DNA of 52,069 bases from NCBI GenBank assembly GCA_051874735.1, contig JBJEGD010000039.1, forward strand, positions 23,838 to 75,906, written 5' to 3'. The DNA comes from Candidatus Bruticola sp. (lineage in GTDB: Bacteria; Vulcanimicrobiota; Xenobia; Xenobiales; Xenobiaceae). The notes under the pieces are model-generated. The model was not told the origin of the DNA, ran no database searches, and saw only the letters and a list, made by a program, of their open reading frames with translations. Below, piece after piece: positions 22,291-46,527 of this stretch (position 1 is its first letter; each line of letters starts with the position of its first letter). The translations under genes and the position numbers were made by a program.

Positions 22291-22317
22291 GCAAACTCCG
22301 CCGAGATACTGATAAAT

Positions 22318-22342
22318 AAAAAAACCCCGATCTCTCGGGGTT
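22318..22342 (-). terminator. Terminator of the tRNA cluster
   Basis: On the minus strand AACCCCGA-gaga-TCGGGGTTTTTTT directly after tRNA-Ala. Confidence 0.8.
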
Positions 22343-22346
22343 AAAG

Positions 22347-22422
22347 TGGTGGAGCTAGACGGATTCGAACCGACGACCTCCTCCGTGCAAGGGAGGCGCT
22401 CTCCCAACTGAGCCATAGCCCC
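22347..22422 (-). tRNA. tRNA-Ala(TGC)
   Basis: GGGGCTA...CCTCC-CTTGCAC-GGAGG...TTCGAAT...TAGCTCCACCA, 76 nt, with the G3:U70 pair. Confidence 0.97.
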
Positions 22423-23783: not shown

Positions 23784-25295
23784 TTAATTATAAATACAAA
23801 ACTTAGCTACTACATGGGGCAAAGACTCGGCCTCCTCGGGTACTTCACGACAAGCCTCTAAAAGCCACTCTGGGTAAATATTCTCTTCATAAAGCCTCAT
23901 AATATCGCGATTAACCAAACCGAAAGGACGTCCCTCAAACATAGCCTGAGCTTTAGGGGCGGGGTAAGCTTTCAATACAGCTTCTATACGATAGTAAGTA
24001 AAGAACTCTAAAGAGTTGGTTTCTATTTGAAGATATAATGAAAAACTGACCGCTACTGCTATAACTAAAGCCAGTGCTTTACTCTGCCAAATTGACCAAT
24101 GTTCAAGAACATATTCAAAAACAAGCAAAACTGGCCAGGAAAGTTGACTGAGTACAAAAAGCAAATAGCGAGGCCCGTATCCCCAGTGACCGCCCCAATT
24201 GATAAATTTAGCATTTACCAACAAAAACACCAGAAAGATGATACCCACCAGCAGACTCTCTCGGCGGAAACGTTTATAAAAAGCTTTGACTGCAAACAGA
24301 GCAAATATTAGAAGAGGCTGATAGATAAAAATACTTTTATCCGAGCTGAATAAAAAGCCGCTCAATCCCTGCCATAAATTGCCGGCAAAAGCCTGAGCTT
24401 CCCTACTCCATTGAGTGTAGCCGGTGTTAAAGGGACTGCCGAAGCGCCAATAATTAGTGACCAGTAACAGGGCAGCGGCAAAAATTGTCGGTCCAATCTG
24501 CCAAGCCTCAAGGCGCATCTTACTCAACCAATTAGAACTTTTGCTCACCTCATTCTGAGCCAAATCTTCAGATTTAGCGGCTGTCTTACAGCGGTCAGGA
24601 CAGTTTTGAGGCCAATACCAAACAGCGAACCAAATAGGTACAATTAAAACATAAATGCTCTTAAGCATTATCAAACTTATTAAACTTATCCACAAAGCGA
24701 CTTTTATATACAAAAACGGTCCTTGACGGGATATTTGGGCACGTAAGCAGGCAACAGCAGCCGCAAAAAATATTGAAGCAGCTGTCCACTGAAAAATTTC
24801 GCCACTCTGAGCACGCAAATAATTCCAACCAAAACCGGCAAACATACTGATAAGAGTCCACAAAGCCGCTATTTCTGAGCGCTTGCAGAAGAAAGAGGCC
24901 CCCCAGTACAAAGATGCAGCTAGTCCTAAAGTCCAAATAAGGTTGAAACAGTTGAGCATTAAAAGGAAGTAAGGAGAGCGTTGGTCACCGATATAAAAAG
25001 ATTCACAACCACATACTTTCCACAGCCAAGCCATAGGCAGCATAAAAAAACTATTAAATAAACCATACTTGCTGTAATATTTGCCCGAAGCCTCGTTATA
25101 AAAGCAGTACTGTCCTACTTCTAATTTTGAAGCATACTGAGCGGGAATATCGTCCTGCCCATCAACCCAAGCCTGGACTTGGGCTCTCATCCAATAAGGA
25201 TCACCTATATAAACATGCTTAGGAAAACTACAAATACTGATAATCGCCGTAATTACTAACATCAGCCCCCAAATTAGCTGAGGCTTATTTTTCAT
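23784..25295 (-). CDS. Polytopic membrane protein, GT-C-fold glycosyltransferase-like
   Basis: Many TM helices; GD motif after TM1, YYSKYG, NYWRFGSPFNTGY and WGGHWGYGPRYL. Confidence 0.65.
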   Translation of the reverse strand: MKNKPQLIWGLMLVITAIISICSFPKHVYIGDPYWMRAQVQAWVDGQDDIPAQYASKLEVGQYCFYNEASGKYYSKYGLFNSFFMLPMAWLWKVCGCESFYIGDQRSPYFLLMLNCFNLIWTLGLAASLYWGASFFCKRSEIAALWTLISMFAGFGWNYLRAQSGEIFQWTAASIFFAAAVACLRAQISRQGPFLYIKVALWISLISLIMLKSIYVLIVPIWFAVWYWPQNCPDRCKTAAKSEDLAQNEVSKSSNWLSKMRLEAWQIGPTIFAAALLLVTNYWRFGSPFNTGYTQWSREAQAFAGNLWQGLSGFLFSSDKSIFIYQPLLIFALFAVKAFYKRFRRESLLVGIIFLVFLLVNAKFINWGGHWGYGPRYLLFVLSQLSWPVLLVFEYVLEHWSIWQSKALALVIAVAVSFSLYLQIETNSLEFFTYYRIEAVLKAYPAPKAQAMFEGRPFGLVNRDIMRLYEENIYPEWLLEACREVPEEAESLPHVVAKFCIYN

Positions 25296-25862: not shown

Positions 25863-27242
25863 TTAATCTAAAATGAAAGTGGCCGTAGCTCCGCCTCCCG
25901 AAGTCACATTACAAAGAGAAGTTCCTGAAAGACGAGTCATAAAACTAGTAACACGACCGCTGAAAATATAAGGATCTAAATCTACAGCGTACTCTCCCAT
26001 TTCTACAGCAGAACCGTTCCAACTAGGATAATGTTCACGGGCAACACTGACCTTAACTTGCACCAAGTAGTCGTTATTTAGACACTTTTCTATAGCCTGT
26101 TCCCAAGTAGACTGGTCACTATCCCAACCGATAATAACACCGTGCCCGCCGTAATCATCATTGGGCTTCATCACCAAATTATCTTTGTTGCTACGAACCC
26201 AATCCAGCAAGTCTACTTCCCGGCCATCAGGGCTGGAAGTCTTTTCGTCTATCAGCATGCGCGTCCAAGGAATATGGGAATAGACTGCCTGCAGCTGTCG
26301 TTCTGTAAAACCTTCTTGGTACTTAGGATCGGTAAGAATGGCAAATATGGCTTTTTTATGGAAGATTTTACAGCGGAAGGAATTTACGAAACAGGCGGCA
26401 TGATTTTTATAAGCTTCCCAGACAGCCTGACACTCAGAGGCTCTATCCAGATATTCATTCATCAACAAGCGCTTATAGAATATATGAATCTGCTGTCCAC
26501 AATAACTCAAAGCACCATTACTGTATTCTAAACGACGCGGATCAGCAATCAGACACTTGTAACCGCTCTTTTGGAAATGGTCGCGAATGCGACGAAATTC
26601 TGGTACGGTAGGCAGCCCCTCATAATCTATAATGCCTATCGTGGGTTTCTCCGTACCTCCCCATTCTTCATAAGCATCAAGCAAAGACTGCAGTAAACGA
26701 TCGCCGCTATAGTAAGCTTGGCAGGGGAATTCGCGCATAAATTCGTGGAATAAACCGGTGCGAAGGAAACTATTGTTCATTTCATCAGAGTATATTACTC
26801 CAGCCGGCGTCTCGGCATTATACTCGACAAACTGCAAAGATCCGCCCATGAAGAAACTGTCCAGACGAGATGTAACAGAAATTTCCTTATAACCAGGATC
26901 TATTTCTATTAAACGGCGATCGTCATCAGTTAAACCGAGCTTAACTTTAAGCTCCTCTTCGGCTAAAAGCCGCGGCGTCAGTACCTGCAAAGCTCCGTAT
27001 ATGCCTCTGACAGCATCACGCATGAGCAGAACTTGCTCTCTTCCAATAAAATGAGGCCTAAGAAATGGGCATAAGAAGCGACCGCCAAATTCAACTTCAC
27101 GACTACGCAACTCATTTTGAAGTTCCTCAGCGAAACGAGAAACATCACATTTTTCCAGAAGCTCATGATAACGGGCTATAGCTGCCTGACGGTATGGTTC
27201 ACGAGCCGCAGCCATAAGCATAAGATCTATAACGTCTGCCAT
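25863..27242 (-). CDS. Circularly permuted ATP-grasp / glutathionylspermidine synthase-like ligase
   Basis: SRLDSF...FVEYNAETPAG, IPWTR, LVMKPNDDYGGHGV, CNVTSGGG. Start placed at ATG 27242. Confidence 0.8.
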   Translation of the reverse strand: MADVIDLMLMAAAREPYRQAAIARYHELLEKCDVSRFAEELQNELRSREVEFGGRFLCPFLRPHFIGREQVLLMRDAVRGIYGALQVLTPRLLAEEELKVKLGLTDDDRRLIEIDPGYKEISVTSRLDSFFMGGSLQFVEYNAETPAGVIYSDEMNNSFLRTGLFHEFMREFPCQAYYSGDRLLQSLLDAYEEWGGTEKPTIGIIDYEGLPTVPEFRRIRDHFQKSGYKCLIADPRRLEYSNGALSYCGQQIHIFYKRLLMNEYLDRASECQAVWEAYKNHAACFVNSFRCKIFHKKAIFAILTDPKYQEGFTERQLQAVYSHIPWTRMLIDEKTSSPDGREVDLLDWVRSNKDNLVMKPNDDYGGHGVIIGWDSDQSTWEQAIEKCLNNDYLVQVKVSVAREHYPSWNGSAVEMGEYAVDLDPYIFSGRVTSFMTRLSGTSLCNVTSGGGATATFILD

Positions 27243-27702
27243 TTTTTTCAGCCTCACAATCTTGAGTTTTGTTAGATAAGCGGCGGCAGTTTTTTTCTGA
27301 TAATAGCCGCAACTTCATTTTTGCCCGCAATACAGTTCCGCTGTGTGGCGAAGCTGAGCTGATACTGAAAGCATAAATCTAGGTATGAGAGATTGATCTG
27401 TAAAAAACTAATATAACTTAAAAATCATTAGTAGTTAGTACAATTAACTGCACGCTTTTTTCTATAAAAGAATAAATATAGCCTTCTTTAAGACGGATAA
27501 CAGCGGTTTTTACGATACGTTCTCAGCAAAAATATCATTTACAAATAAATGAGCACAACGGCATAACTTTATAAGCCTTCAGCAAACACGCTTTGAAGGA
27601 TACTACTTTTTATAAAAGAACTCATCAGCCCATTAAAATCTGGAGAAGGATTATAACTATTCCTTTCCGCTTCTGCTTTTATACTAGGAACTTAATAAAG
27701 AT

Positions 27703-29808
27703 ATGACAGAAAGACTTTCCCCAACTGAACCCAATTCTAAGCCTGTCATGCCTGCTGTTGACAGCAGCGATTCCAAGCTTAGTTTAAATTTTAACAGCTC
27801 TTCTGAAACCAATAGCGCTGACAACTTACCTAAAAAGTCGGGGGAATTTTCTAATGTTTCTGAAAAAGCACAGGAAACAGATAAGATAGCTCGTCTTGTT
27901 ATTAAGAAATCATCCTCTGGAGAATTCAAAACTGCCAATACAACGAACAATGCTTCGACAACTCATACAGAGGTAAAATTATCGACAGAAAACAGCCAAC
28001 GGAAAGCTCCTCCTCTGCCTATTTCAGATGACGATGAGGAAAGAGCAGCTTCAGATAAAGCTAAGCAGGAAAATAGGCATACCGATTCAAAAGGCCGCAC
28101 TAGCCGGGAAGTAAACGCAATTAATCATCAGCATAAAGATATTCCCACAGAGACAAAAACTGACGCAGGGGCTGATTTAAAAATATCTAGTCCTTCTTCA
28201 TCAGCTCATCATTCCTCATCTGATGGCGGCCGGAAAAGTAGCGAACATACTTCTCTAAAAGGTACAGCCCATCCGCCTCATGGCAACGACTCCCATAATC
28301 AGAAAGCAGCTACGGAGCTACACAACCAGCGCCACTTAGCTCCTCCTTTATACTCTCCTAAAGAGGATAAAGACTTTGAGCACAATAATAAAGGCGCAGA
28401 AGCTTCACCGAACGAAGTCAAACCCTATAATTCAAAAAGCCACGAAGATAGCTCCAATGAAGACAAGCCTGTGCGACTTTCTACGTCTGGTACTAAAAAT
28501 GATTTAATTATTTCTCTAGTTTATCTAGCCTTTTTAATAATTGGTCTGCTTTGGGGAGCCAACAGCCTGCTAGTTTGGAAACACGATCTTGATGTCCAAC
28601 CTAGCATTTCTTACCGCCAGCTCTGCTGGTCTTACAACAACGAATCCCTAGCCTTCATGCGATCCGAGAACAAGCACATTTCTAAAGGTCAGTCTCTCAA
28701 AAATTCGCTGTGGGTAAGTGATCGCTTTGGCGATGGAGCCAGATGCCTCCAGGATAATCTTCCCGAAAATTATGAGCTGACTGGCTGGTTTGCTAATGAC
28801 TCCCTTTTAGTTCTCAATTCTTCCAACCTACCTATAGATATAGAGAAATTAAAAGAGTCATCAGAAAAGAAAAACATCCAGCTTAGTGAAATTAAATTGC
28901 CCGCTAACGGATCAGACACGGCCAAGAACAATGCTTCAGGACTTTCGTTTGCGGAAATAAACTGCCAAGACAATTCTATTAAGTTTTTGAGCCTAGGTGT
29001 AGGCAATGTCCAAGTAGTTGGCTGTAACTCTAAGGAAATATTCCTAGCTCAATACCTTGCTTCCAACAACGGCATGAGCCACATAAATCTGCTATCTTAT
29101 CAACCTGGCAGCCAAGAAGCCAAACTCTTAGTTTCTATTCCTTCGCGTAAAGACGAAATGATGCATGTGGACAGCGTCACTTCATCGCCAGACGGCAACA
29201 AACTAGCCATAGTAATATCCATGATCGCTTCCTTGAGCCAACAAGTTGATCAAAATAACGATACTCCTTTAGGAGTTTGGATATTTAGCAGAGATACCAA
29301 AACTTTAGCCTGGACAGCTATTTCCGCCAATAATGCTAAAGATCTCAGTGTGGTATGGTCAAAAGATTCTAAATGGCTGGGCGGTGTGGCTCGCTATACT
29401 GATGAAGCAGAAATTTTTGCCTTTTACGGAGATAATAACTGCCAAGCGGCTAGATTGCGCGGCGTTCCCCAAGAAGGCCCGATTACTCCTTTAATAGACA
29501 GCAACGAACACGCTTTAACCTTTATTTCCTTAAACCGCATTGACCGCTACAATTTTGATACGCAACAAGATGTGCCTCTGCTCTCGGCAGACAATTTAGA
29601 ATATATGCCTAGCAATTTTGCTGTCTCTACTAACGGAACTGTGGCTTACGCCGCTAAGCCCTACAATGCACATAACATTTATATCTGTACCCTCAACAAT
29701 CCCAATTCTACAGTAGTAAAAATTCCTACAGATTCAGCAAAGCATACTTGGCTTTACAGAGCGGTAGGCCGTCTGCAGTACTCAGTAGATTACTGGCTAA
29801 ACTTCTAG
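27703..29808 (+). CDS. Bitopic membrane protein: disordered N-terminus, one TM, TolB-like beta-propeller
   Basis: About 265-aa S/E/K/H-rich N-terminus; TM LIISLVYLAFLIIGLLWGA; propeller-like motifs SSPDGNKLAI, VWSKDSKWL and AVSTNGTVAY. Confidence 0.65.
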   Translation: MTERLSPTEPNSKPVMPAVDSSDSKLSLNFNSSSETNSADNLPKKSGEFSNVSEKAQETDKIARLVIKKSSSGEFKTANTTNNASTTHTEVKLSTENSQRKAPPLPISDDDEERAASDKAKQENRHTDSKGRTSREVNAINHQHKDIPTETKTDAGADLKISSPSSSAHHSSSDGGRKSSEHTSLKGTAHPPHGNDSHNQKAATELHNQRHLAPPLYSPKEDKDFEHNNKGAEASPNEVKPYNSKSHEDSSNEDKPVRLSTSGTKNDLIISLVYLAFLIIGLLWGANSLLVWKHDLDVQPSISYRQLCWSYNNESLAFMRSENKHISKGQSLKNSLWVSDRFGDGARCLQDNLPENYELTGWFANDSLLVLNSSNLPIDIEKLKESSEKKNIQLSEIKLPANGSDTAKNNASGLSFAEINCQDNSIKFLSLGVGNVQVVGCNSKEIFLAQYLASNNGMSHINLLSYQPGSQEAKLLVSIPSRKDEMMHVDSVTSSPDGNKLAIVISMIASLSQQVDQNNDTPLGVWIFSRDTKTLAWTAISANNAKDLSVVWSKDSKWLGGVARYTDEAEIFAFYGDNNCQAARLRGVPQEGPITPLIDSNEHALTFISLNRIDRYNFDTQQDVPLLSADNLEYMPSNFAVSTNGTVAYAAKPYNAHNIYICTLNNPNSTVVKIPTDSAKHTWLYRAVGRLQYSVDYWLNF

Positions 29809-29870: not shown

Positions 29871-31373
29871 ATGAAAAGCAGCATCTTGTACTTGACTTTG
29901 TGTTCTACAGTTCTCGGATTCAGCCTGATAAGCTCAGGATGTTCCGACAGCGAGAGTGAAGGAAATCTTAGTTTTAAAATTACTAACTCAGGCTCCCCAT
30001 CTGAACCGCAAATATTTATTCCTGAAGCCACTAAAAATATCAAACTCGAAGTCTTTCAGGAGCCCTCCTTCACAGGGCGAGCTGTCTCATTTTCTTCCAA
30101 AATTAGTCCTGTCAACGCTCTCTCGAAAAATAACGATTTGGTGAGTGCCCCCCATGCAGTACAGCCGCTTTACGCTTTAGGAACTTCCAGCGAGGATAAA
30201 AACAAAAATAGCGGCAAAACTTACTACACAGTCTCGGCCGCTTACGAAGGCGGTGAACCAGAACTAAACATAGATGGCATTTCCGATGGAGAATGGATAA
30301 TTAGAGTTTCTGCCTTAGACAGCAACAACAATGTTTTGGCTTACTATCAAGATGGGTTGACTATGAACGGCAGCAATCGCTCTGTCAAAGGCTGGCTCCA
30401 ATCTGGAGCAGCCCCTTCGGGCTACCTTTATGCTACCCATACTTCTAACGGCACCATAACTAGAGTTAGTCTTTACAGCAATTTAATCGACACTATTAAA
30501 TTAAGCTCTGGAAACCCAGCTTATCTTTTTGCCAAGCGCACCGAGACGCCATCATTTAGTGACCTTTTTTACGCTACTACGGGTGGACCAAAAATTTTGC
30601 AGCTTACCCCTGCTTTCATCGACAAAAGAATCGATGTTGAAGACTTATCCTTCCCTACTAACGGCACGTTCGTGCGCAGCAGCCTAAACAGCGATACAGC
30701 AGCCGTATCTTTCTTTAAGGAAGGCATGGTGCGCTTTTTCAATTTTGAGCAGGATGTCAACTACGATTATATCTACACTGGAAACGGAGCAGGATACATC
30801 AGCCATCTTACATCTAACAACCAATTTTGGGTATGCAATGAAACAGATAAAAATTTAAGCTTGGTAGATATGAATAGCCGCAGTTTAGCCTATGACGACA
30901 ATCTGCGCTTAGGTAACGATACGCCCAGAGCAGCTGAGCCTAACAGCGACAACTCAAAAATCTGGGTTATCGGTACCCGCTCCTCAGGTGGATTCATTCG
31001 AGCTGTAGATTTCAGCCATCAAGATATGGGCGGACATAACTGGGGCGAATTTACTACCAATATCATTAATCCTGGAGCTATTTGCTTAGTTTCAGAATCT
31101 TTAGGTTGCGTAACTGATAATACACGCGGCGAACTTATCTTCTTCGACGCCGAAAATCTTGATGAAGAAGGCAATATTAAAGAAATATTTGGCAAAAGTG
31201 GAGCGCGCCTGCGCTTGACAGGCGGAGGTGATCAGATTATATCGGACGGCACACGTATTTATATACTGCAAATGGAACAAGGAAAGATTAGTACTATCGA
31301 TCTGGCAACTAAAACGGAAGTTTCGTCTTACAATTTAGGCTCAAGCGCTCGCAGTTTAATGCAAGTAAAATAA
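29871..31373 (+). CDS. Lipoprotein with YncE/YVTN-like beta-propeller
   Basis: Lipobox SSGC; repeats LYATHTSNGTITRV, FWVCNETDKNLSLVD and IYILQMEQGKISTID. Confidence 0.7.
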   Translation: MKSSILYLTLCSTVLGFSLISSGCSDSESEGNLSFKITNSGSPSEPQIFIPEATKNIKLEVFQEPSFTGRAVSFSSKISPVNALSKNNDLVSAPHAVQPLYALGTSSEDKNKNSGKTYYTVSAAYEGGEPELNIDGISDGEWIIRVSALDSNNNVLAYYQDGLTMNGSNRSVKGWLQSGAAPSGYLYATHTSNGTITRVSLYSNLIDTIKLSSGNPAYLFAKRTETPSFSDLFYATTGGPKILQLTPAFIDKRIDVEDLSFPTNGTFVRSSLNSDTAAVSFFKEGMVRFFNFEQDVNYDYIYTGNGAGYISHLTSNNQFWVCNETDKNLSLVDMNSRSLAYDDNLRLGNDTPRAAEPNSDNSKIWVIGTRSSGGFIRAVDFSHQDMGGHNWGEFTTNIINPGAICLVSESLGCVTDNTRGELIFFDAENLDEEGNIKEIFGKSGARLRLTGGGDQIISDGTRIYILQMEQGKISTIDLATKTEVSSYNLGSSARSLMQVK

Positions 31374-31380
31374 TTAAGTT

Positions 31381-31803
31381 ATGATTGCCGATAACCTACT
31401 CTATATAGCTTTCAGCAGTATACTTGTACTAGTCTGGTTAAGCTTAATAATTCGACTAAATTCTAGCCGAAGCAGCCGCAAATTTAATGATTGTAGCAAC
31501 CATTCCGTTCATAACAGTTACGATAACGGCGATCTATCTTCGAAATCGTTTATAGATATAAACGTGCCTACTCTATTACATACTTCTTTTGTTATGATCA
31601 TGCTACCCTTGCTGATGTTTATAGCTTCATTGCTGAGACCAGCTATTAAACTAGGATACATTACCAATTTTTTAGTTTTACTGACAGTTATAGCTGTCAG
31701 CACAGCGGTTGTTATCTGGGCAGCTATCTCTCAAAATATGCTTAAAAGCATTTTTTATAATGTTGCAAATGATCATAATAAACAGGACATAAAACACGGC
31801 TGA
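31381..31803 (+). CDS. Highly diverged NuoA/ND3-like membrane protein
   Basis: 3 TM with a long TM1-TM2 loop containing SYDNG (cf. PYECG); the FDVE motif is absent. Confidence 0.5.
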   Translation: MIADNLLYIAFSSILVLVWLSLIIRLNSSRSSRKFNDCSNHSVHNSYDNGDLSSKSFIDINVPTLLHTSFVMIMLPLLMFIASLLRPAIKLGYITNFLVLLTVIAVSTAVVIWAAISQNMLKSIFYNVANDHNKQDIKHG

Positions 31804-31835
31804 ATCACTGCCTAAGCAGCCGACACTTTATCTAT

Positions 31836-32927
31836 ATGCGTATTTTTATAGACAATTTTTTTCAGAATTGCTGCGGTTTTGATCTCAGCCAAACTAGCAC
31901 TTGGTTGATTAGTGCCTTTATAAGTGTGGCTATCATTGTATTTTTAACCGTCTGCCAGATGCTTTCGCGACAAGCTGGGCAAAGAATTAGTTTACTGTGG
32001 ACTCATATACAGAAAGGCTTCGGTCTGCACAATTGGATACCTAAAGCAATAAGCTGTCTGCCCCAGCGTCTGTCCAGTCCTAAAAATTTAAGATTCTGGT
32101 CCCAAGAAGGCCCTAGCTTCTATTTATCAGTTTTAATTTTATGTCTATCCTTTACATCGTGCCTGCTGCTGCCCTGGTCAGCTTCACACTGCAATCTTCC
32201 TTCTAAAGTAACTCTGTGCGGATTTGAAAACTCTTTTAGCTTTATTTTGTTTTTCGGCTTACTGCTCGCCTCCAATAGTCTAACAGTTATAAGTAAACTA
32301 CTTTATGCTCATAACTCTGAATTTGCCAACCAGTTCATTAAACGGTCAGCCTGGATGTCCGCCTTTATGATTGCCTGCTTAGGTCCGGTCATCTTAACAG
32401 GTCAGCTCTCTATAAGCGCTATAGCGGAAAAGCAAGAAGAAGGTTTATTCGGACTACCGTGGTTGGGAATTTACGCTTTTCCTGGTTTTCTAGGTTTAAC
32501 TGCCGCCTTAGTTTGTCTATGCCGCTGGGAAGACGCCATCACTCCAACTTGTAACTTACAGAGCAAATATAAAAATAATAGTTTTAGCCAATTTATAGAC
32601 TCTGTAACTGAGCGCTTCAATTTTCTAGCTCTGAGCAGCCTAATTATTATATTATTTGGCGGCAGCTGGAATCTGCCTATGCTAACTTATCCAGCTTATC
32701 TAAATTTAGGATTTTTAATAGCCCCCTATACTGACCTTATCTGTGGTTTAGGTGTATTTATTCTAAAGCTCTGCTTTTTTTCAATTGTTTGGCCATCCTT
32801 ATCTGCTTACATAAAATGGCAAAGAAAAATTAGACCTTCCGTTACTTTGTGTATACTGCTCATTTCGCTAAATTCAGCAATTTGCGCTATTTTAGCCGGG
32901 ATGTATCAACTATATCTGGGAGGCTAA
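31836..32927 (+). CDS. Highly diverged NuoH/ND1-like membrane protein
   Basis: 363 aa; LLPW, VILTGQLSISAIAEKQ (cf. GSLxLxxIVxxQ), TERFNF...SSLIIILFGGSW (cf. AEYxN...SxLxxxLFLGGW), FILK...W. Confidence 0.7.
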   Translation: MRIFIDNFFQNCCGFDLSQTSTWLISAFISVAIIVFLTVCQMLSRQAGQRISLLWTHIQKGFGLHNWIPKAISCLPQRLSSPKNLRFWSQEGPSFYLSVLILCLSFTSCLLLPWSASHCNLPSKVTLCGFENSFSFILFFGLLLASNSLTVISKLLYAHNSEFANQFIKRSAWMSAFMIACLGPVILTGQLSISAIAEKQEEGLFGLPWLGIYAFPGFLGLTAALVCLCRWEDAITPTCNLQSKYKNNSFSQFIDSVTERFNFLALSSLIIILFGGSWNLPMLTYPAYLNLGFLIAPYTDLICGLGVFILKLCFFSIVWPSLSAYIKWQRKIRPSVTLCILLISLNSAICAILAGMYQLYLGG

Positions 32928-32935
32928 AAAGAATT

Positions 32936-33562
32936 ATGATCTTGGGCACTTACATATTTCCTGTCGGGTTAAGTACTTGGCTATCCTACAGTTTACTCAC
33001 TATGCTCTGTCTGTTTTTAGCTTTCAAAGCGGTTCTGAGCCGCAACAGTCTTTTAGCCTGCACTTATACGGGAGCCTTTATGCTGTCTCTAGGCCTAATT
33101 TACTTCTGTTTAGATTTGCCTTATGCAGCTGGGTTACAAATTTTTCTTAGCGCCGGTCCCACTAGTATGCTTTTGCTATTTGCAGCTCTCCGCCATTCTT
33201 CAGCAAATTCAACCGCATTGTCAGTCAATCCCGACGATGCCAAACGCCCCAAAAGGTGGGCCACAGCCGCTGCTTTATCGTTCTTTGCCTCCGCTTGTAC
33301 GGCAGTTTGGCTTAGCACACCATTTTTAAACAGCTCCCTGCCCATTCCGGCTTCTACTGAAATCTTTCCCCATACAGACTATACCTTTTTTCTGGAAGAC
33401 TACGCTTCAATAGATAGTTGGACAATAATTATTCTGAGTATCTGCAGCCGCTATCCTCATATAGCGGCCTTACTATCTGTAGTAGTCAGTGCTTTACTTA
33501 TGATTTCCTGTAAAACAACTCGCCCTTTATTAGCCTCTTTAATTGACAAGAAAGGCAATTGA
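32936..33562 (+). CDS. Diverged NuoJ/ND6-like membrane protein
   Basis: AVLSRNSL...IYFCLDLPYAAGLQIFLSAGPTSMLLLF (cf. NPV...YxxLxAxFxAxxQIxVYAGAIxVLFLF). ATG at 32936 follows GGAGG. Confidence 0.75.
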   Translation: MILGTYIFPVGLSTWLSYSLLTMLCLFLAFKAVLSRNSLLACTYTGAFMLSLGLIYFCLDLPYAAGLQIFLSAGPTSMLLLFAALRHSSANSTALSVNPDDAKRPKRWATAAALSFFASACTAVWLSTPFLNSSLPIPASTEIFPHTDYTFFLEDYASIDSWTIIILSICSRYPHIAALLSVVVSALLMISCKTTRPLLASLIDKKGN

Positions 33563-33566
33563 CTTT

Positions 33567-33851
33567 ATGGTTCCTCTTCAATTCTTTTTAGTATTTGCAG
33601 CTGCTATATTCAGTCTAGGCCTGTACAGCCTGATAGCCAACTCTTCCAAAATAGCTTGCTTAATAGGCGGCCAGTTATGCTTAGGTGGAGCATGCCTAAC
33701 TTTAGCGGCAGCGGCCAGATATATGCCCAATCAGGAAGCCTTAATCTTTAATTTAGTTATAAGTCTGTATGGTGCAGGGCAAATGGCTGCAGCTGTCTTC
33801 TTGCTAAGTGGCCTTGCCGAAACTACAGAAAGTAAAAACTCTGATCACTAA
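33567..33851 (+). CDS. Diverged NuoK/ND4L-like membrane protein
   Basis: MVPLQFFLVFAAAIFSLGLY...LIGGQLCL...GAGQMAAAV (cf. MxPLxxYLxLxAxLFxIGL...LMSxELML...AAAEAAVGL); 94 aa. Confidence 0.75.
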   Translation: MVPLQFFLVFAAAIFSLGLYSLIANSSKIACLIGGQLCLGGACLTLAAAARYMPNQEALIFNLVISLYGAGQMAAAVFLLSGLAETTESKNSDH

Positions 33852-33965
33852 ATAAGAGGATTATTTTACCAGACCATAAAGAGGCCAAAGGCACAAGTTG
33901 TCGGCAGCTTTTTATATGTTTCAAAGTACTATATAAAGAGAAAATTTTTACGTTGAGGTGTACTT

Positions 33966-34757
33966 TTGCTAGACAAAACAGCTGCCTTTTATGTAGCGAT
34001 ACTTCCTCTGACAATAATTTTAAGCACCGTAGCAGCCATCTGCTTAACCGCTCTTCCTGCCGCCAGAAGTGAAAGATCTGGTTTCTGCTTGGCTGTTTCC
34101 GGCTTGCTCTCTAGTGCCGCTGCCGCTTTAGTTCTATTAGTTAAGCTACCTTCTTGGACACCTCTCAGCTATGGAAATGGAGCTTTCACTTTTAATGTAA
34201 GCACAGCTGCCTTCATAGTATGTTTAAATATACTCGGTCTAGCAGAACTTTATTCGCTTTATAAAAGATCCGAAACCAAACGAACTGTATATATAAACAT
34301 TCTGTTAAGCGTTAGCGGTTTAATTGTGTGTACCAGCTGCCATGAATTAATTTGTCTATCTTTAGGCATGGCTCTGGCTTTTTGGCCTATGATCAACACT
34401 GTATACAGACAAATCGACTCCCATCATTCGCCAATGCTGCAAAAAGCCGATCATTTAATCAACATGCAAATTGGAGCTTCAGCTTGCCTTTTTTATTCAA
34501 CGCCTCTATTTCTCCTCATCAATCGTACAACAATTATAAATCAGTTAACTTTATCAACTGAAGCTATCTCCTTATTAGCTTTAATTATGTTGCTAATGGG
34601 ACTAGTAGCAGAGTTAGTTGCAGCCTGCCTATTCGCTGATATCATGCGTAGATTACACAACACTCTATGGTCCCGTTTTATCTTTTTAAATGTCGCTCTG
34701 GCCTTAGTTCCACTTTTTACTGTCGGGCACTCTGTATATCATTTTTTATTTACATAA
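33966..34757 (+). CDS. Diverged, C-terminally shortened NuoN/ND2-like membrane protein
   Basis: ILLSVSGLIVCTSCHELICLSLGMAL (cf. LLxSxxGMxxxxSAxDLxxxFxGLE), IGASACLFYS. TTG start after GAGGTG; 263 aa, roughly half the usual length. Confidence 0.6.
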   Translation: MLDKTAAFYVAILPLTIILSTVAAICLTALPAARSERSGFCLAVSGLLSSAAAALVLLVKLPSWTPLSYGNGAFTFNVSTAAFIVCLNILGLAELYSLYKRSETKRTVYINILLSVSGLIVCTSCHELICLSLGMALAFWPMINTVYRQIDSHHSPMLQKADHLINMQIGASACLFYSTPLFLLINRTTIINQLTLSTEAISLLALIMLLMGLVAELVAACLFADIMRRLHNTLWSRFIFLNVALALVPLFTVGHSVYHFLFT

Positions 34758-34820
34758 CTCAATGTATTAATATAGTATCTGATACCTTTTGTTTTTAATA
34801 AATAAAATAGGACGGGGTAT

Positions 34821-36275
34821 ATGGACAATCAATCTGAATCAATTTTGAGCAAACTACTAGTTCTCAAAGGGGCTATACGAGAGCTATGGAACATGTTTGC
34901 TTGTAAAATTCTCCATATAGTTGCCTATGGACTATGCAACGGTACAATTATACTCTGGCTTTCCAAAGATCTAGGAATGTCCGATATGAATGCCGGCTTG
35001 ATGGTAGCAGGATGGTCAACTCTCCTTACTTTAATCACAGTAATGGTGGGTTCCTTAGTAGACGCCATAGGCATAAAAAAAGCTCTTCTTATAGGCTTTG
35101 TTATATGCATAATTTCACGCTTTATTATGGCCATTACTACTATAAAGGCCATAGTGCTGCCTTTAGGATTTATGCCATTGGCTGTGGGTGAAGCTTTAAT
35201 GGTGCCAGTCATGGTGGCAGCTATAAAAATGTACACAACGGCTGCCCAACGTTCTATGGCTTTCTCTATATTCTATGCAGTAATGAATGTCGGTTTTGCC
35301 ATTGCGGGTTTCTTGTTTGACCAAATTAGAAGAAACATGGGAGAAACAGGTTCTATCTCACTGGCAGGCTTGAACTTATCGACATATCAAACTCTTATTT
35401 TTATAAGTTTCATAGTTACTATACCGAGCTTGCTGATTGTTATATTCGGTATACGAGAAAATGCTTCTGTAGATGAAAACGGCTGCTATAAAGAAGTAGA
35501 ACATCAAAGCGCACCAGCTTCCTCAGCTCTGCATGCATGTATCAATGCTCTGGTAGAATGGAAACGAATTTTTTGCAGCCTCTGGCATCAGACAGCTTTT
35601 TATAAATTCTTAGCGTTCTTGACTATTGTTGTATTTGTACGCTTAATTTTTTATCATTTTCACTATACGTTCCCCAAATACGGTATCCGTGAGTTAGGCG
35701 AGGGGGCTCCAATAGGTCAGCTCTGGGGGGTTCTTAATCCTATACTTATTATTGTGCTCGTTCCCTTAGTTGGAGCGCTAACTCAAAAACTTAGTGCCTA
35801 TAAAACGGTTGTCATTGGAAGCGCTATTGCAGCTTTAGGACCTCTTTTTATGGCTGTTCCTCCGCACTATTTCAAAACTTTAGCAGACGGCCCTATGGGC
35901 AATTTTATAGCTCACACTTGGTTGAATGTTGCAGACCCTAACGTTAACCCTTTATATGTGAGCATATTTTTAGCTACTATATTTATTTCCGTAGGTGAAG
36001 CTTTTTACTCGCCTAGGCTTTATGAATACCCAGCCGCTATTGCTCCTAAAGGTCAAGAAGGCTCTTATATGTCTCTATCCATGCTGCCTTACTTTATTGC
36101 CAAGTTCTTCGTCGGCATCCTCTCTGGATGGCTGCTGCAGACTTTCTGTCCAGAAACGGGTCCGCGCAGTTCTCACTATATTTGGCTGATTGTCGGTTTG
36201 ATGGCGCTGGCTACTCCCATTTGCTTAGTTATTTTCAAAAAGTTCATCCAAGTGCATGAGGATGGACGCGAGTAA
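34821..36275 (+). CDS. MFS transporter (POT/peptide transporter-like)
   Basis: Motif A GSLVDAIGIKK, AFSIFYAVMNVG, LNPILII, GEAFYSP, APKGQEGSYM. Confidence 0.85.
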   Translation: MDNQSESILSKLLVLKGAIRELWNMFACKILHIVAYGLCNGTIILWLSKDLGMSDMNAGLMVAGWSTLLTLITVMVGSLVDAIGIKKALLIGFVICIISRFIMAITTIKAIVLPLGFMPLAVGEALMVPVMVAAIKMYTTAAQRSMAFSIFYAVMNVGFAIAGFLFDQIRRNMGETGSISLAGLNLSTYQTLIFISFIVTIPSLLIVIFGIRENASVDENGCYKEVEHQSAPASSALHACINALVEWKRIFCSLWHQTAFYKFLAFLTIVVFVRLIFYHFHYTFPKYGIRELGEGAPIGQLWGVLNPILIIVLVPLVGALTQKLSAYKTVVIGSAIAALGPLFMAVPPHYFKTLADGPMGNFIAHTWLNVADPNVNPLYVSIFLATIFISVGEAFYSPRLYEYPAAIAPKGQEGSYMSLSMLPYFIAKFFVGILSGWLLQTFCPETGPRSSHYIWLIVGLMALATPICLVIFKKFIQVHEDGRE

Positions 36276-40869: not shown

Positions 40870-40922
40870 TTGACAATTGTTGATTAGAAATCTAAAATAT
40901 CACATAGAAACTTTTCTATATG
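40870..40922 (+). promoter_or_regulatory. ars promoter and probable ArsR operator
   Basis: TTGACA (40870-40875), 17 bp, TAAAAT (40893-40898), then the palindrome ATAGAAA-ct-TTTCTAT. Confidence 0.8.
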
Positions 40923-40933
40923 TGGTTAACAAC

Positions 40934-41263
40934 TTGGAACAGATTTACTTAGATATGGCCAAAGTGCTCAAAGCGCTCTCTGATCCGAAGCGCTTGCGAA
41001 TCGTAGATATGCTCTCCTGCGGGGAACTGTGTGCCTGCGAAATTTTAGAGGCTTTCCACATCACTCAGCCAACCTTATCCCACGACATGAAGGTCTTAAT
41101 TCAGGCTGGCATAGTGAATGACCGGCGGGAGGGTAAAAATATCTACTATTCCTTAAACGTAACCTATCTTGATTCTTTTCAAACTAAATTAAAGCATATA
41201 TTTGAGGAAAAAGCTGATTGCATCTGCCACAGAAAGAGAAATTGTAATTCCTGCTGCCCATAA
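40934..41263 (+). CDS. arsR: ArsR/SmtB family repressor
   Basis: KALSDPKRLRI, ELCACEI, TQPTLSHDM, C-terminal Cys cluster. Start uncertain (TTG 40934 or GTG 40922); 40877 lies inside the promoter. Confidence 0.92.
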   Translation: MEQIYLDMAKVLKALSDPKRLRIVDMLSCGELCACEILEAFHITQPTLSHDMKVLIQAGIVNDRREGKNIYYSLNVTYLDSFQTKLKHIFEEKADCICHRKRNCNSCCP

Positions 41264-41314
41264 GAACCGATGGCGTAAAGTATTCTTCAGCATCGGTTTT
41301 TTGTTTGCCTAACA

Positions 41315-41332
41315 TATAGAAAAATTTCTATA
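41315..41332. promoter_or_regulatory. Second copy of the putative ArsR operator
   Basis: TATAGAAA-aa-TTTCTATA upstream of arsD. Confidence 0.65.
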
Positions 41333-41356
41333 ATTCAATTAAAGGAAACTCCCCTT

Positions 41357-41734
41357 ATGAAAACTATAAAAATCTATGAACCTGCTATGTGCTGTCCTAC
41401 TGGGTTATGTGGCGTCAGCGTCGACCCAGAATTACTTCGCATTTCCACCAAGCTTAACACCTTAAAGCAGAATGGAATCGAGGTTAAGCGCTTTAATCTC
41501 TCTAACGCCCCTCAGGAATTTGTAAATAACAAGGCGGTAGCAGAATTTTTGCAAAAATTTGGGCCTGAGAAACTTCCTGTAGTGGTTGTTGACAATAAAA
41601 TTGTGATCGCAGGCCACTACCCTTCCAATGAGGAGTTTGCCCAATGGATGGGGGTTCCCACCAAACTTTTAGGTGTCCAAGACGAGAAGAAATCCGGAAA
41701 TAGCTGCTGTTGCAGTGTCGGCTGCTGTGGTTAA
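41357..41734 (+). CDS. arsD: Arsenite metallochaperone ArsD
   Basis: IYEPAMCCPTGLCG, RFNLSNAPQEF, C-terminal CCC..CC. Confidence 0.96.
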   Translation: MKTIKIYEPAMCCPTGLCGVSVDPELLRISTKLNTLKQNGIEVKRFNLSNAPQEFVNNKAVAEFLQKFGPEKLPVVVVDNKIVIAGHYPSNEEFAQWMGVPTKLLGVQDEKKSGNSCCCSVGCCG

Positions 41735-41755
41735 GAAAGCGGGGCTTCTCATATC

Positions 41756-43492
41756 ATGAAAGTATTTCAGCCCAATCAGTTAGTCGGCACTAAGTACTTG
41801 TTCTTCACTGGAAAAGGAGGCGTTGGCAAAACCTCCGTAGCCTGTGCTACGGCGGTTGCTCTAGCCGATCAGGGACAGCGTATTTTGCTCATCAGCACTG
41901 ACCCAGCGTCTAACCTGCAAGACGTATTTAACATAGAACTGAACAACAAAGGGACGCCTATACCATCTGTACCGAATTTGATAGTAGCCAACTTAGATCC
42001 TATACAAGCGGCAGCAGAATACCGAGAGAGCGTAATAGCCCCCTATCGAGGCATTATGCCCAATGCGGTGATCGCTAACATGGAAGAACAACTTTCCGGC
42101 TCCTGTACTATAGAAATCGCTTCCTTCAACGAGTTCGCTAACTTTATTACCGATCAACAGGTGCAAACGAGCTATGACCATATCCTCTTTGATACTGCTC
42201 CTACCGGCCACACTCTGCGAATGCTGCAGCTGCCCTCAGCCTGGAGCAGTTTTATAAGTGAAAGTACTCACGGTGCTTCCTGTCTGGGGCAGCTCTCCGG
42301 TTTAGAAAGTAAGAAAGCCGTGTACAAAGATGCAGTTAAAACCCTCTCCGATAGCCGTCAAACAACCATGGTCTTAGTGACCCGTCCGGAGGAATCTCCA
42401 TTAAACGAAGCGCAACGGGCTTCTAATGAACTCGCGGAGCTGGGGATAAATAATCAAATTCTCATAGTGAATGGCATTCTTAGTGAAAGCGACGATATAG
42501 TTTCCCAAAAATTATTTGCCAAGCAACAAACCGCACTTACAAATATGACTGAAGGATTACGGCATCTTCCCAACTATCAGATACCCCTGAGAGCTTACAA
42601 CATTACAGGCTTAGATCATGTGCGTTCTATGCTTCGTGAAGATCGACAAGAGGTTCGCACTGAGAAATTGAACGCCGTACAAATTCACAGATTGCAAGAT
42701 ATTGTGGATTCAATAAATAAAAATGGCCGCAAGATAGTTTTCACTATGGGCAAAGGTGGCGTAGGAAAGACTACAGTTGCTGCCGCTCTGGCATTGAGCT
42801 TGGCCCAACGTGGCCATAATGTACATTTAACTACTACCGACCCAGCAGCACATCTGAAATTTGTACTAGAGCAGACTGACAACATTACTACAAGCCATAT
42901 AGACGAACAGGCTGAACTAAAAAAATACCAGGAAGAAGTGTTATCCAAAGCCAGAGCCAATGGCTTATCAGATGATGATATTGCCTATATTGAGGAAGAT
43001 CTGCGCTCTCCCTGCACCCAGGAAATTGCGGTATTCCGAGCTTTTGCAGAAATAGTAGAAAAAGCAAACGAGCAAATAGTAGTCATAGATACTGCTCCTA
43101 CTGGCCACACTCTACTGTTACTAGAATCAACGGAAAGTTACGACAAGGAGATCCGACGCACTAAAGGCGAGCCCCCAGAATCTGTCAAGCGCCTTTTACC
43201 CAGGATAAAAAGTGCCGAGACTCAAGTCGTTATCGTTACTCTGCCGGAGGCCACCCCTGTTTATGAAGCCCTACGGCTGGAAGAGGACTTGAACCGAGCG
43301 CATATCGCTGTGGGATGGTGGGTCATTAACCAATCTTTTTATCAAGTTGGCGCTACCAACGCTTTACTTAAAGCAAAAGCAGCCAATGAAGTAGAGTGGA
43401 TCAACAAAGTTGATCAGCATACGGGTGGGAATTTTGCACTAATTGCCTGGAGCGCTGACCAGATCAAAGGTGATAAACTCCTGGAGCTTTGA
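41756..43492 (+). CDS. arsA: Arsenical pump-driving ATPase ArsA
   Basis: Two GKGGVGKT and two DTAPTGHT motifs; SGSCT, ASCLG, SPCT. Confidence 0.97.
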   Translation: MKVFQPNQLVGTKYLFFTGKGGVGKTSVACATAVALADQGQRILLISTDPASNLQDVFNIELNNKGTPIPSVPNLIVANLDPIQAAAEYRESVIAPYRGIMPNAVIANMEEQLSGSCTIEIASFNEFANFITDQQVQTSYDHILFDTAPTGHTLRMLQLPSAWSSFISESTHGASCLGQLSGLESKKAVYKDAVKTLSDSRQTTMVLVTRPEESPLNEAQRASNELAELGINNQILIVNGILSESDDIVSQKLFAKQQTALTNMTEGLRHLPNYQIPLRAYNITGLDHVRSMLREDRQEVRTEKLNAVQIHRLQDIVDSINKNGRKIVFTMGKGGVGKTTVAAALALSLAQRGHNVHLTTTDPAAHLKFVLEQTDNITTSHIDEQAELKKYQEEVLSKARANGLSDDDIAYIEEDLRSPCTQEIAVFRAFAEIVEKANEQIVVIDTAPTGHTLLLLESTESYDKEIRRTKGEPPESVKRLLPRIKSAETQVVIVTLPEATPVYEALRLEEDLNRAHIAVGWWVINQSFYQVGATNALLKAKAANEVEWINKVDQHTGGNFALIAWSADQIKGDKLLEL

Positions 43493-43589
43493 GATAGGAA
43501 TTGCACTCTCCTAAGGGGGCAATCAGGCAAGCTGTTCCGGAGAGCTATTTGTAGACAACCTAAGCATAGATACTAGCGATAAAAGCATT

Positions 43590-44642
43590 ATGGCGAAAAC
43601 GGATTATAACATGAACGAGGAAAACGGTGCTGGAATTAATTTTTTCCAGCGCTATCTGACAGTTTGGGTATTTCTTTGCATGGTAGTTGGTGTTTTGCTG
43701 GGTCATTTGGCCCCGCCCCTGCCCACCATACTTGAAAATTTAGAAATTGCCAAAATTTCTATTCCCATGGCAATTCTTATCTGGGTAATGATCTACCCCA
43801 TGATGCTCAAAGTTGATTTTCAGAGCCTTCGCAACGTGAGTAAAAATCCCCAAGGCCTGTTCGCTACTTGGATCGTAAACTGGCTAGTCAAGCCCTTCAC
43901 CATGTATGCTATAGCCGCTCTGTTCTTCTTCGTGGTCTTCAAAGCATTCATACCATCGGAAATGGCCACCCAATATCTTGCGGGCGCAGTATTATTGGGG
44001 GCAGCCCCCTGTACAGCGATGGTGTTCGTCTGGAGTACTCTGACTCGTGGTAATCCTACCTACACAGTAGTTCAGGTGGCTACTAACGATCTCATCATCT
44101 TAGTAGCCTTCGTGCCTATCGTAAAGTTCCTGTTGGGAGTGTCGAAGGTAACGGTTCCTTTTGACACCTTAATCCTCAGTGTAGTGCTATTTGTGGTCAT
44201 ACCTTTGGTAGGGGGCATCCTGACCAGACTGGCAGTCATTAAGCAAAGAGGACTAGAATACTTTGAAAATGTCTTTCTCCATAAATTCGATTCCGCTACT
44301 ACTCTGGGGCTGCTGCTGACGCTAGTACTCATCTTCATGGGACAGAGCGAAGTCATTCTGAAGAATCCTTTACACATCGTTATGATCGCTGTGCCCTTAA
44401 TTTTACAAACCTTTCTGACCTTTGGAATTGCCTACGGCGCCTGCAAGCTGCTAAAACTTCCCCATGATATTGCGGCTCCCGCCGGCTTGATTGGCGCTTC
44501 TAACTTCTTTGAACTCGCAGTAGCCGTAGCGGTGTCCCTATTTGGCACAACCAGTCCGGCGGCCTTGGCTACCACAGTAGGCGTGCTGACCGAAGTTCCG
44601 GTGATGCTAATACTAGTAAAAATTGCGAACCGGAATACATAA
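43590..44642 (+). CDS. acr3: Acr3 family arsenite efflux transporter
   Basis: RYLTVWV, MIYPMMLKVDF, NWLVKPF, AAPCTAMVFVW, SNFFELAVA, EVPVML. Confidence 0.95.
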   Translation: MAKTDYNMNEENGAGINFFQRYLTVWVFLCMVVGVLLGHLAPPLPTILENLEIAKISIPMAILIWVMIYPMMLKVDFQSLRNVSKNPQGLFATWIVNWLVKPFTMYAIAALFFFVVFKAFIPSEMATQYLAGAVLLGAAPCTAMVFVWSTLTRGNPTYTVVQVATNDLIILVAFVPIVKFLLGVSKVTVPFDTLILSVVLFVVIPLVGGILTRLAVIKQRGLEYFENVFLHKFDSATTLGLLLTLVLIFMGQSEVILKNPLHIVMIAVPLILQTFLTFGIAYGACKLLKLPHDIAAPAGLIGASNFFELAVAVAVSLFGTTSPAALATTVGVLTEVPVMLILVKIANRNT

Positions 44643-46191: not shown

Positions 46192-46527
46192 TCTGTCTCT
46201 GTACCTCCGCAAACTCAAGATAGAAGGGGCAAATATCCACAAAGATTCAATAAAAACCGCTGACGGCAGCTTCACCCGCAAACGAGGCTAACCAGAACCG
46301 ATTTTTATAACAACGAGGCCACGCTGCCGCGGCTACTAAGCCGCTAAGCGCAACTTGCAGCCCTCCCCCTCTGCCCTTTTTCGCCCCACAAACTACTCAA
46401 AAATCCCCGCAGGAATTCTCAAAAGTAAAATGCAAATCCTGCCCGATTATATTTTAAGGATAAAAAAATGGCGTAGTTGCCGACATTTAGATGAATAAAA
46501 TCATAAATTAAAGTCGGCTACTTACAC

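Follow-up and report, generated by a model that had tools for sequence, protein, structure and literature searches.

The locus and its reading frames

The subject of this report is a module of five membrane-protein genes at positions 31381-34757 of a 52,069-nucleotide stretch of DNA from Candidatus Bruticola sp. (contig JBJEGD010000039.1), the whole of which is called the window. Four of the genes encode homologues of the complex I (NDH-1) subunits NuoH, NuoJ and NuoK and of the N-terminal half of NuoN, and the fifth, open reading frame (ORF) A, occupies the place expected of nuoA. On balance, the module is probably a residual and slowly disappearing remnant of the proximal membrane arm of complex I, structural in role and redox-dead, which was inherited vertically and is still under selection. 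The genome which holds the window (G000, of genus g1 in the family Xenobiaceae, family label f1) comprises 2.47 Mb in 42 contigs and is 92.4% complete, and all of the genomes compared are draft bins.

The five ORFs are all present, intact and encoded on the + strand, as the first-pass annotation of this DNA had described them (Table 1). ORF A starts 8 bp past the upstream lipoprotein gene, up2, which is the slot expected for nuoA once nuoBCD are removed. The longest possible frames for NuoJ and NuoK begin earlier than the starts shared with their orthologues, at GTG 32849 (overlapping H) and TTG 33543, respectively. Of the good Shine-Dalgarno sequences reported in the first pass, those of J (GGGAGG upstream of 32936) and N (GAGGTG) were found, and those of A and H were not. 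The G+C content of the module region is similar to that of the remaining window. From up1 through the downstream major facilitator superfamily (MFS) gene, a consensus scan located no + strand site resembling a terminator. A promoter-like match immediately before the MFS gene agrees weakly with the consensus and does not rise above shuffled sequences. According to these consensus scans, the gene order, the short gaps and the lack of a + strand terminator fit one transcription unit from up1 to the MFS gene.

Table 1. Positions in the window of the five-gene module, its flanks and other features.
Feature	Position	Strand	Description or basis
Glycosyltransferase	604-1836		family 9, heptosyltransferase type
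Very large ORF	13774-17040	+	1088 aa
Very large ORF	17809-22416	-	1535 aa
ORF	23784-25295
ORF	25863-27257
up1	27703-29808
up2, lipoprotein-type gene	29871-31373		upstream flank of the module
ORF A, 140 aa	31381..31803	+	three hydrophobic segments (about 1-29, 62-91 and 91-119); ORF call, hydropathy
32-bp spacer	31804..31835		sister genera have nuoB-C-D here (canonical order A-B-C-D-H in L022 and others)
Divergent NuoH homologue (H), 363 aa	31836..32927	+	about 8 predicted helices
Divergent NuoJ homologue (J), 208 aa	32936..33562	+	from the orthologue-shared start; PF00499, alignment A7
Divergent NuoK homologue (K), 94 aa	33567..33851	+	from the orthologue-shared start; PF00420, FpoK/NuoK, alignments to 3rko_K and A6
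114-bp spacer	33852..33965		sister genera have nuoL and nuoM here
NuoN N-terminal half (N), 263 aa	33966..34757	+	8 predicted helices; hhalign, alignment A9, AF2, Foldseek
63-bp spacer	34758..34820		before the MFS gene; no trace of the nuoN C-terminal half
MFS transporter gene	34821-36275	+	downstream flank, same strand as the module
Arsenic resistance cluster	40877-44642
Flavin reductase, rubredoxin-like and rubrerythrin fusion	44731-46281	-

Homology of the reading frames

The ORFs H, J, K and the NuoN half are remote but real Nuo homologues, as judged from several kinds of comparison. The match of H to PF00146 (NADHdh) has an E value of 6.3e-5 and 22.9 bits, under the cut-off of 27, and that of J to PF00499 (NuoJ) has an E value of 1.2e-5 and 25.5 bits, under the cut-off of 33.2. 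K matches PF00420 (NuoK) with an E value of 4e-6 and 26.9 bits, over the cut-off of 26.1, and is the sole Nuo match which exceeds a curated cut-off. NCBIfam agrees for J and K, with FpoK/NuoK found for K at 1e-7 to 1e-5. The NuoN-half ORF has no Pfam match. When an alignment of this ORF with its four orthologues was compared by hhalign to the canonical NuoN of the family, the probability was 97.1% (E 5e-11), with residues 10-222 of the half corresponding to residues 9-230 of the 503-column NuoN profile; nothing of the antiporter fold's second half is left. A tblastn search of the genome with canonical NuoH from a relative matched the H ORF and nothing else (E 2e-22).

Structure models of H and N, which lean towards the canonical fold since the alignments used to build them include canonical relatives, were searched with Foldseek. 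For the H model (pLDDT 64, pTM 0.69, by AF2), all 50 PDB matches listed are NuoH, ND1 or NdhA chains; phmmer of H against the PDB sequences returned no match, and the fold search alone gave PDB matches. For the NuoN-half model (AF2, pLDDT 79, pTM 0.79), ranks 1-17 are NuoN, ND2 or NdhB chains, of which about half of each target is covered (query TM 0.64-0.78, target TM 0.38-0.46), and MrpD chains are among the lower matches. Searches for homologous proteins found only genus-level relatives, four proteins for H and two for the NuoN half, with the window's own included in each count. H has its closest named relative, at 64% identity, in a protein of 'Candidatus Bruticola sp.', a genus of the class Xenobia in the phylum Vulcanimicrobiota.

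The single-sequence Pfam scores, being near or under the cut-offs, could be taken to mean that these are hydrophobic ORFs which resemble Nuo subunits by chance or composition, or a cluster acquired horizontally. Such an origin is refuted as far as sequence data can refute it. First, the H, J and K matches of neighbouring ORFs stand in canonical order. Secondly, the NuoN half reaches the 97% probability noted above. Third, similarity is graded, through the genome G064 of genus g3, to the canonical operons of the family. Lastly, the G+C content is like that of the surroundings. Thus, the first-pass assignment to nuoA, H, J, K and half of nuoN stands for H, J, K and the N-terminal half of N, and for ORF A its grounds are position and topology only.

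ORF A has no Pfam and no NCBIfam match, and the alignment of ORF A from the genus gave an hhalign probability of 0.2% against the canonical NuoA of relatives. In the protein atlas its best value is 0.85, to tetraspanin clusters, which is below the lead level, and a profile search of 1.84 billion representatives returned six proteins of 78-149 aa; neither search gave a link to NuoA. A 244-aa upstream ORF of G064 likewise has no link to either the ORF A or the NuoA alignment. The NuoA proteins of relatives carry FDV(E/D), a motif which ORF A does not have; the first-pass statement that NuoA has no DVE is therefore correct for the motif, while an identity with NuoA is undetectable. Prediction of a complex of H, J and K with ORF A as the partner gave a median of 0.11 (runs of 0.48, 0.00 and 0.11) and was used neither way. 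The turn between hydrophobic segments 2 and 3 (RPAxKLGY) is the best conserved part of ORF A, with 62-67% identity versus 7-27% elsewhere; the 50% of transmembrane segment (TM) 1 against the g1 genomes G025 and G037 represents 12 aligned positions and 44 gaps. In these two genomes (L021 7336-7587 and L041 1358-1609, respectively) ORF A is 83 aa long, with the first hydrophobic segment missing and the RPxxxLGY turn kept.

Loss of functional residues

The residues of NuoK, NuoH, NuoJ and NuoN which are required for quinone binding and proton pumping in canonical complex I were located in alignments. Positions 36 and 72 of NuoK are both Gln in the window (alignment to E. coli NuoK, 3rko_K); across the five species of the genus (alignment A6), E72 is replaced by Gln in all five, and position 36 is Gln in three and Glu in two. 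NuoJ has FLSAGP in the window where relatives have VYVGAI (alignment A7). In NuoN, the column of the TM5 Glu reads Ala, Ala, Gly, Ser and Ser in the five species, with Ala in the window, and the column of the TM7 Lys is Glu or Asp in all five, with Glu in the window. In NuoH, 154 alignment columns do not vary among six canonical sequences. All seven degenerate sequences keep just 12 of them, and among the 142 remaining columns 38 are charged, His or Tyr. The NuoH motifs WLERK, KED, SYE, ESNRxPFDxPExE and RxRxDH are lost. The first pass had read both NuoK glutamates as Gln, the NuoJ motif as LSAG, the acidic cytoplasmic loop of NuoH as eroded and NuoN as about half length and without its TM5 Glu. 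All of these readings were borne out for the window genome. The degenerate H proteins also have 24 positions which are invariant among themselves only, including the block H118-C-N-L-P-S123, and these are common to two genera.

Missing partners in the genome

The subunits which would make the module part of a working complex were sought in the whole of G000. Pfam searches gave no match to PF01058 (NuoB), PF00346 (NuoD), PF00507 (NuoA) or PF00361 (antiporter-like), and tblastn with the B, C, D, L, M and N proteins of relatives gave a best E value of 0.058. With the NuoI model, G000 gave only generic ferredoxin-type matches of at most 34 bits. Of five relatives searched, four reached about 77-82 bits, and G064 reached just 34 bits. 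In the ten genomes of genus g1, G000 included (88-98% complete), NuoD was found in none and PF00361 in none, and NuoD was found in all seven genomes of genera g2, g4 and g5. G000 has no cytochrome bd and no Rnf or Nqr, and the c subunit of ATP synthase is present. A prenyltransferase of the UbiA family (MenA/UbiA) was not found in G000 by a search which was positive in 14 of 14 known genomes, which points to an absence of quinone synthesis. Relatives have an [FeFe] hydrogenase and HydF, and elsewhere in the window there is a fusion of flavin reductase, rubredoxin-like and rubrerythrin domains. Together, these observations fit a fermenting anaerobe without quinones, and the fusion fits an oxygen-stressed one. 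A weak BLAST match of the G064 H protein to a 410-aa ORF near up2 in G003 was rejected, since that ORF is HydF.

Thus, of the parts of complex I, the quinone-reducing module (Q-module), full-length NuoL, NuoM and NuoN with the TM5 Glu and TM7 Lys, and the E-channel carboxylates are all missing, and a quinone made by the cell is apparently missing too. For an Mrp or group 4 [NiFe] hydrogenase module there is neither a full-length MrpA/MrpD-type subunit nor a NuoB/NuoD-like subunit. It might still be proposed that the module belongs to a working energy-converting complex, the partners of which are too divergent to be found or lie in the unassembled 8% of the genome. The incomplete assembly in 42 contigs would leave room for this, and H itself is under the Pfam cut-off, so that partners could be equally eroded. 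However, NuoD and the antiporter-like families are absent from ten of ten genomes of the genus, the spacers at the locus measure just 32 and 114 bp, there is no UbiA-family enzyme, and the coupling carboxylates and the NuoH loops for contact with the Q-module are gone. A concealed working complex is accordingly a very improbable explanation.

Canonical operons and ancestry of the module

In the sister genera g2, g4 and g5, as well as in another family, H matches a gene inside a canonical nuoA-B-C-D-H-J-K-L-M-N operon with strong Pfam scores. The g2, g4 and g5 genomes are larger (3.5-4.7 Mb), except for one 71%-complete assembly. The H protein was searched against 151 genomes of the phylum and matched in 15 including G000, with matches in 13 of the 18 other family genomes; the degenerate H query is blind to distant canonical NuoH, and zeros outside these matches are uninformative. 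Five further g1 genomes carry the arrangement of the window. Four of these have the full order up1-up2-A-H-J-K-N-MFS, and in the fifth, G037, a contig end cuts inside J.

The canonical operons of the family (L022 = G030, L023, L024, L025 and L027) consist of ten genes; nuoI is missing between H and J, and nuoE, F and G are missing from the operon. In family f1, nuoJ directly follows nuoH, and a NuoI-like domain (about 77-82 bits) occurs elsewhere, within a frame of 698-784 aa on separate contigs (G030:C69, G070:C71 and G098:C220), which suggests a fused electron-input subunit. The missing nuoI is therefore ancestral and no part of the loss, because in the canonical relatives, too, J comes right after H. 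The first-pass claim that the intervening genes are cleanly absent thus applies to B, C and D and to L and M, both at the locus and in the genome, and does not apply to the nuoI gap. A second cluster in g4 and g5 has a NuoD-like gene (E about 1e-33) beside two antiporter-like genes (G070:C10, G076:C86, G098:C99, G084:C442 and G080:C16). Probably a group 4 hydrogenase-type or second complex-I-like system, this cluster does not occur in the small-genome genera.

G064 represents an intermediate. It has no NuoD, and the remains of its membrane arm are found at two contig ends. One end (L028 1-2712) has the 244-aa ORF with three hydrophobic segments, a degenerate H with no Pfam match and J (E 2.5e-13), and two genes with weak antiporter-like matches (E 3e-12 and 8.6e-15) lie at the other (L042 6987-9821). 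The antiporter-like genes are followed by SDR, HD and glycosyltransferase genes and then by a PfkB/cytidylyltransferase gene. The same PfkB/cytidylyltransferase gene directly follows nuoN in the canonical G030 operon, and the G064 genes lie at the ancestral nuo locus. The NuoN of G064 retains the TM5 Glu and the TM7 Lys (alignment A9), and by analogy with Mrp this arm without a Q-module could move ions. The derived H block HCNLPS is common to G064 and genus g1. A single loss of the Q-module before the split of g1 and g3 is the simplest reading.

In the H tree, the degenerate forms attach to the NuoH of the family through long branches. A loop insert, GLFGxPxLG, is present in degenerate H and in the canonical NuoH of family f1 and is missing in the f9 outgroup. 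Composition, the H tree and this shared family-specific insert indicate vertical descent, and horizontal transfer was rejected on the first two.

Selection and the location of constraint

When G000 is compared with the second clade of its genus, protein identity is 89-90% for the MFS protein and 69-71% for up2 (73% for the partial G037 copy), and 47-52% for K, 36-39% for H, 32-34% for J, 23-26% for N and 18-25% for A. Synonymous divergence (dS) is saturated for most pairs, and the relatives are few and related, so that counts over them are not independent. For the closest pair, G025 and G037 (dS 0.18-0.39), the Nei-Gojobori ratio of nonsynonymous to synonymous divergence (dN/dS) of H is 0.20 (bootstrap 0.13-0.31) at a dS of about 0.39; A has 0.41 (bootstrap 0.18-0.91) and up2 has 0.014. 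For G000 and G019, all five genes have dN/dS of 0.13-0.28 with dS saturated. The MFS gene has 0.006-0.023. Canonical H in relatives of high G+C has 0.03-0.18 by the same method. Relaxation of constraint therefore rests mainly on the rate relative to the flanks (dN 0.080 versus 0.004 for up2, a twentyfold difference), because the dN/dS ranges overlap.

All five frames are open in five species, and A and H are open in a sixth, the contig of which ends in J. In neutral simulations of H at a divergence of 0.39, 13 stops arose on average and none of 3000 replicates stayed open; H, J and N were each open in 0 of 3000 at the divergences tried. For the shorter frames, open copies survived in 0.8% of runs for K and 0.1% for A at a divergence of 1.5, and in 17% for A at 0.18. 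The first-pass inference that these are not pseudogenes was thus upheld, with purifying selection indicated by dN/dS of 0.13-0.41, the frames open in five species and the simulations.

It could be argued that selection acts here on something other than the proteins, with stop codons being harmful through polarity on the MFS gene or through toxic truncated membrane proteins. The same strand, the short gaps and the lack of a + strand terminator-like site from up1 to the MFS end would permit this, the MFS gene is strongly constrained, and the whole module is dispensable (see below). Against it, the bootstrap range of dN/dS for H means that most amino-acid changes are removed, which goes beyond stops, and the loop-patterned conservation described next is unexpected from polarity. 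The promoter-like match upstream of the MFS gene would also speak against polarity, weak as it is. A role without protein-level function is for these reasons improbable.

The constraint in H has a distinct location. Segments were taken from the model helices and the topology from canonical enzymes, with the sidedness of the NuoH loops from published structures. Three loops of H which are periplasmic in canonical complex I have 62-71% identity between the clades of the genus. For the loops TM1-2 and TM5-6, which lie on the cytoplasmic side in canonical NuoH, identity is 4-12% with insertions and deletions, and for the helices it is 16-48%. In K, the TM2-3 loop has 67% and TM1 is nearly equal, with 61%. 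In N, the TM6-7 loop has 49%, and the TM2-3 loop has only 16% and falls outside the tendency. The periplasmic loops of H are also those most like canonical NuoH (24-49%), and they may be kept simply for folding and subunit contacts.

Deletion of the module in relatives

In two genomes of the same genus, G042 and G034, up2 is directly followed by the MFS gene and the module is gone. A tree of three flanking genes places G042 as the sister of the module-bearing G012 (support 99/98) and G034 outside of G025, G012 and G042 (support 96/98), so that G042 and G034 are not sisters. The junctions also differ. That of G042 (L037 10229-10316, compared with L020 of G012) retains the last four nuoN codons and the stop as a footprint, with the break at a short ATGGC-G repeat which is present at both ends in G012, and that of G034 has no nuoN footprint. 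Because of the non-sister positions and the different junctions, two independent clean deletions are indicated, and because each of these species deleted the module independently, the module is dispensable. Repurposing of the module, as described in the first pass, is no more than a possibility. Nor was the module found in G003 and G054 (g1) or in G062 (g3), genomes in which the contigs are short or the surroundings of the locus rearranged.

The upstream genes are both conserved, and up2 stays in place after deletion of the nuo remnant. The up1 protein has a low-complexity N-terminal part rich in Ser, Asn and Lys, one hydrophobic segment and a large C-terminal domain, and up2 has a lipoprotein-type signal with its Cys and weak hints of beta-propeller repeats. 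A role for up2 as a module-specific partner was rejected, since 18 of 19 family genomes have the gene, among them genomes with a canonical operon and genomes from which the module was deleted.

A neo-functionalised module has to be weighed against these deletions. It would serve as a periplasmic docking platform or as a polar path across the membrane, with Gln and Glu residues replacing the Glu/Lys relay, and would be lost where the niche does not need it. Several observations speak for this. First, the constraint in H is concentrated in the periplasmic loops, with a similar tendency in A, K and the N loop 6-7. Secondly, the 24 invariant positions found only in degenerate H, HCNLPS among them, extend across two genera. 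Third, the acidic residue at the NuoN TM7 Lys and the Gln at NuoK E72 each occur in five of five species. Lastly, the module has persisted longer than it takes synonymous divergence to saturate. However, the module has been cleanly deleted twice and was not found in three further genomes, the same periplasmic loops are the best conserved relative to canonical NuoH and may serve folding, and no partner was identified; both upstream genes outlive the module, and up2 occurs across the family. We regard neo-functionalisation as doubtful, with a chance well short of even.

Other features of the window

The arsenic resistance cluster of the window consists of an ArsR-type regulator, ArsD, an ArsA ATPase and a carrier of the SBF/ACR3 type. 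The two very large ORFs have no Pfam match at E 1e-5, nor have further ORFs of 460-500 aa, which include the two listed in Table 1. A lipopolysaccharide outer membrane is hinted at by the glycosyltransferase and by the PfkB/cytidylyltransferase gene found next to nuoN in relatives, and 'periplasm' is thus probably the right word.

Discussion

The favoured course of events begins with a family ancestor which had the nuoA-B-C-D-H-J-K-L-M-N operon. The Q-module NuoB/C/D would have been lost in the ancestor of the two small-genome genera, and NuoL, NuoM and the C-terminal half of NuoN would have been lost further in genus g1, giving the present A(?)-H-J-K-N(half). NuoA, H, J, K and N are neighbouring subunits at the proximal end of the complex I membrane arm. 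The five proteins appear, from their sequences, to be still made and kept by purifying selection, and they may still enter the membrane, fold and pack together into a small redox-dead subcomplex. With no electron input, no UbiA-family prenyltransferase and the coupling carboxylates replaced, and with the NuoH loops which form the quinone cavity erased, the five proteins cannot work as complex I does. Redox-driven pumping is excluded by the first three of these losses and by the lack of any complete antiporter subunit. The first pass had proposed a non-pumping scaffold or channel. The loss of the coupling charges agrees with an absence of pumping, and a channel is less likely given the lost carboxylates. 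The constraint would now lie in helix packing and in the loops which are periplasmic in canonical complex I. The role would be accessory, structural and not catalytic, and conditionally dispensable, in a lineage which may be losing the module stepwise.

Several points weigh against this remnant interpretation. First, the identification of ORF A with NuoA rests on position and three-segment topology, and no method ties the protein to NuoA. Secondly, the dN/dS of degenerate H (0.20, bootstrap 0.13-0.31) overlaps the range of canonical H (0.03-0.18). Third, the 24 invariant positions specific to degenerate H could mark newly acquired constraint. In addition, the frames have been open since before the two genera split, which favours a real and perhaps new function. 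Lastly, the assembly of the five proteins with one another is drawn from their ancestry alone. A new non-respiratory membrane machine, composed of NuoH-J-K and half of NuoN, in which selection has moved to the periplasmic face and to a polar axis lined with Gln and Glu, is therefore to be taken seriously as a possibility, though we think it the less likely outcome.

The remnant differs in instructive ways from known systems. Compared to the canonical NDH-1 operon of the family (L022-L027), it has the same order of H, J, K and first half of N and shares family-specific features of the NuoH periplasmic loops, but it has no NuoB/C/D, no NuoL/M and no second half of NuoN, and its amino-acid rate is far above that of the flanks. 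In mitochondria, the proximal-arm module of ND1, ND3, ND6, ND4L and ND2 is a known assembly unit of complex I. It contains the same set of neighbouring subunits, which canonical enzymes can hold together ahead of the addition of their other parts; however, the remnant is an end state in which ND2/NuoN is halved, the coupling residues are gone and assembly would be deduced from descent. The Mrp antiporter and the Mbh, Ech and Fpo membrane modules have NuoK-like and antiporter-like folds in common with the remnant, and Mrp is a complex-I-like membrane arm which works without a redox module. However, the Mrp and hydrogenase modules need full-length antiporter-like subunits with a Glu/Lys relay, and the hydrogenases also need NuoB/D-like subunits, none of which are present in G000. 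G064, with its two antiporter-like genes and its NuoN TM5 Glu and TM7 Lys, is nearer to such a state than the remnant of the window.

The literature search covered a limited body of papers, without supplements, and located no description of a nuoH-J-K-N remnant without a Q-module and none of complex I in Xenobia. A survey of nuo clusters (bioRxiv 10.1101/2025.03.13.643058) uses 'Nuo-partial' for clusters missing one or more of the 14 nuo genes. The category is a bin, and the part of the survey available to us describes no selected, charge-stripped gene set without a Q-module.

These results also carry a warning for annotation. H and J fall below their Pfam cut-offs and are missed, and the matches could lead a pathway tool to report a 'partial complex I'.

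Complex I is thought to be modular in origin, having been formed from an Mrp-like membrane part and a hydrogenase-like part. The close relatives studied here stage the reverse path, from the full operon to an arm without a Q-module (G064), to the five-gene stump of the window and to clean absence (G042 and G034). The series shows which subunits outlast the others, namely NuoH-J-K and half of NuoN, and which parts are constrained, these being the periplasmic loops rather than the charges or the cytoplasmic loops. As a new machine, if it is one, the module would offer a natural minimal proximal-arm module for studying the folding of complex I subunits without their partners. A stump with its own function would put a much-studied membrane fold to a new use, and a stump without one would be a well-dated example of the slow decay of an operon for polytopic membrane proteins.

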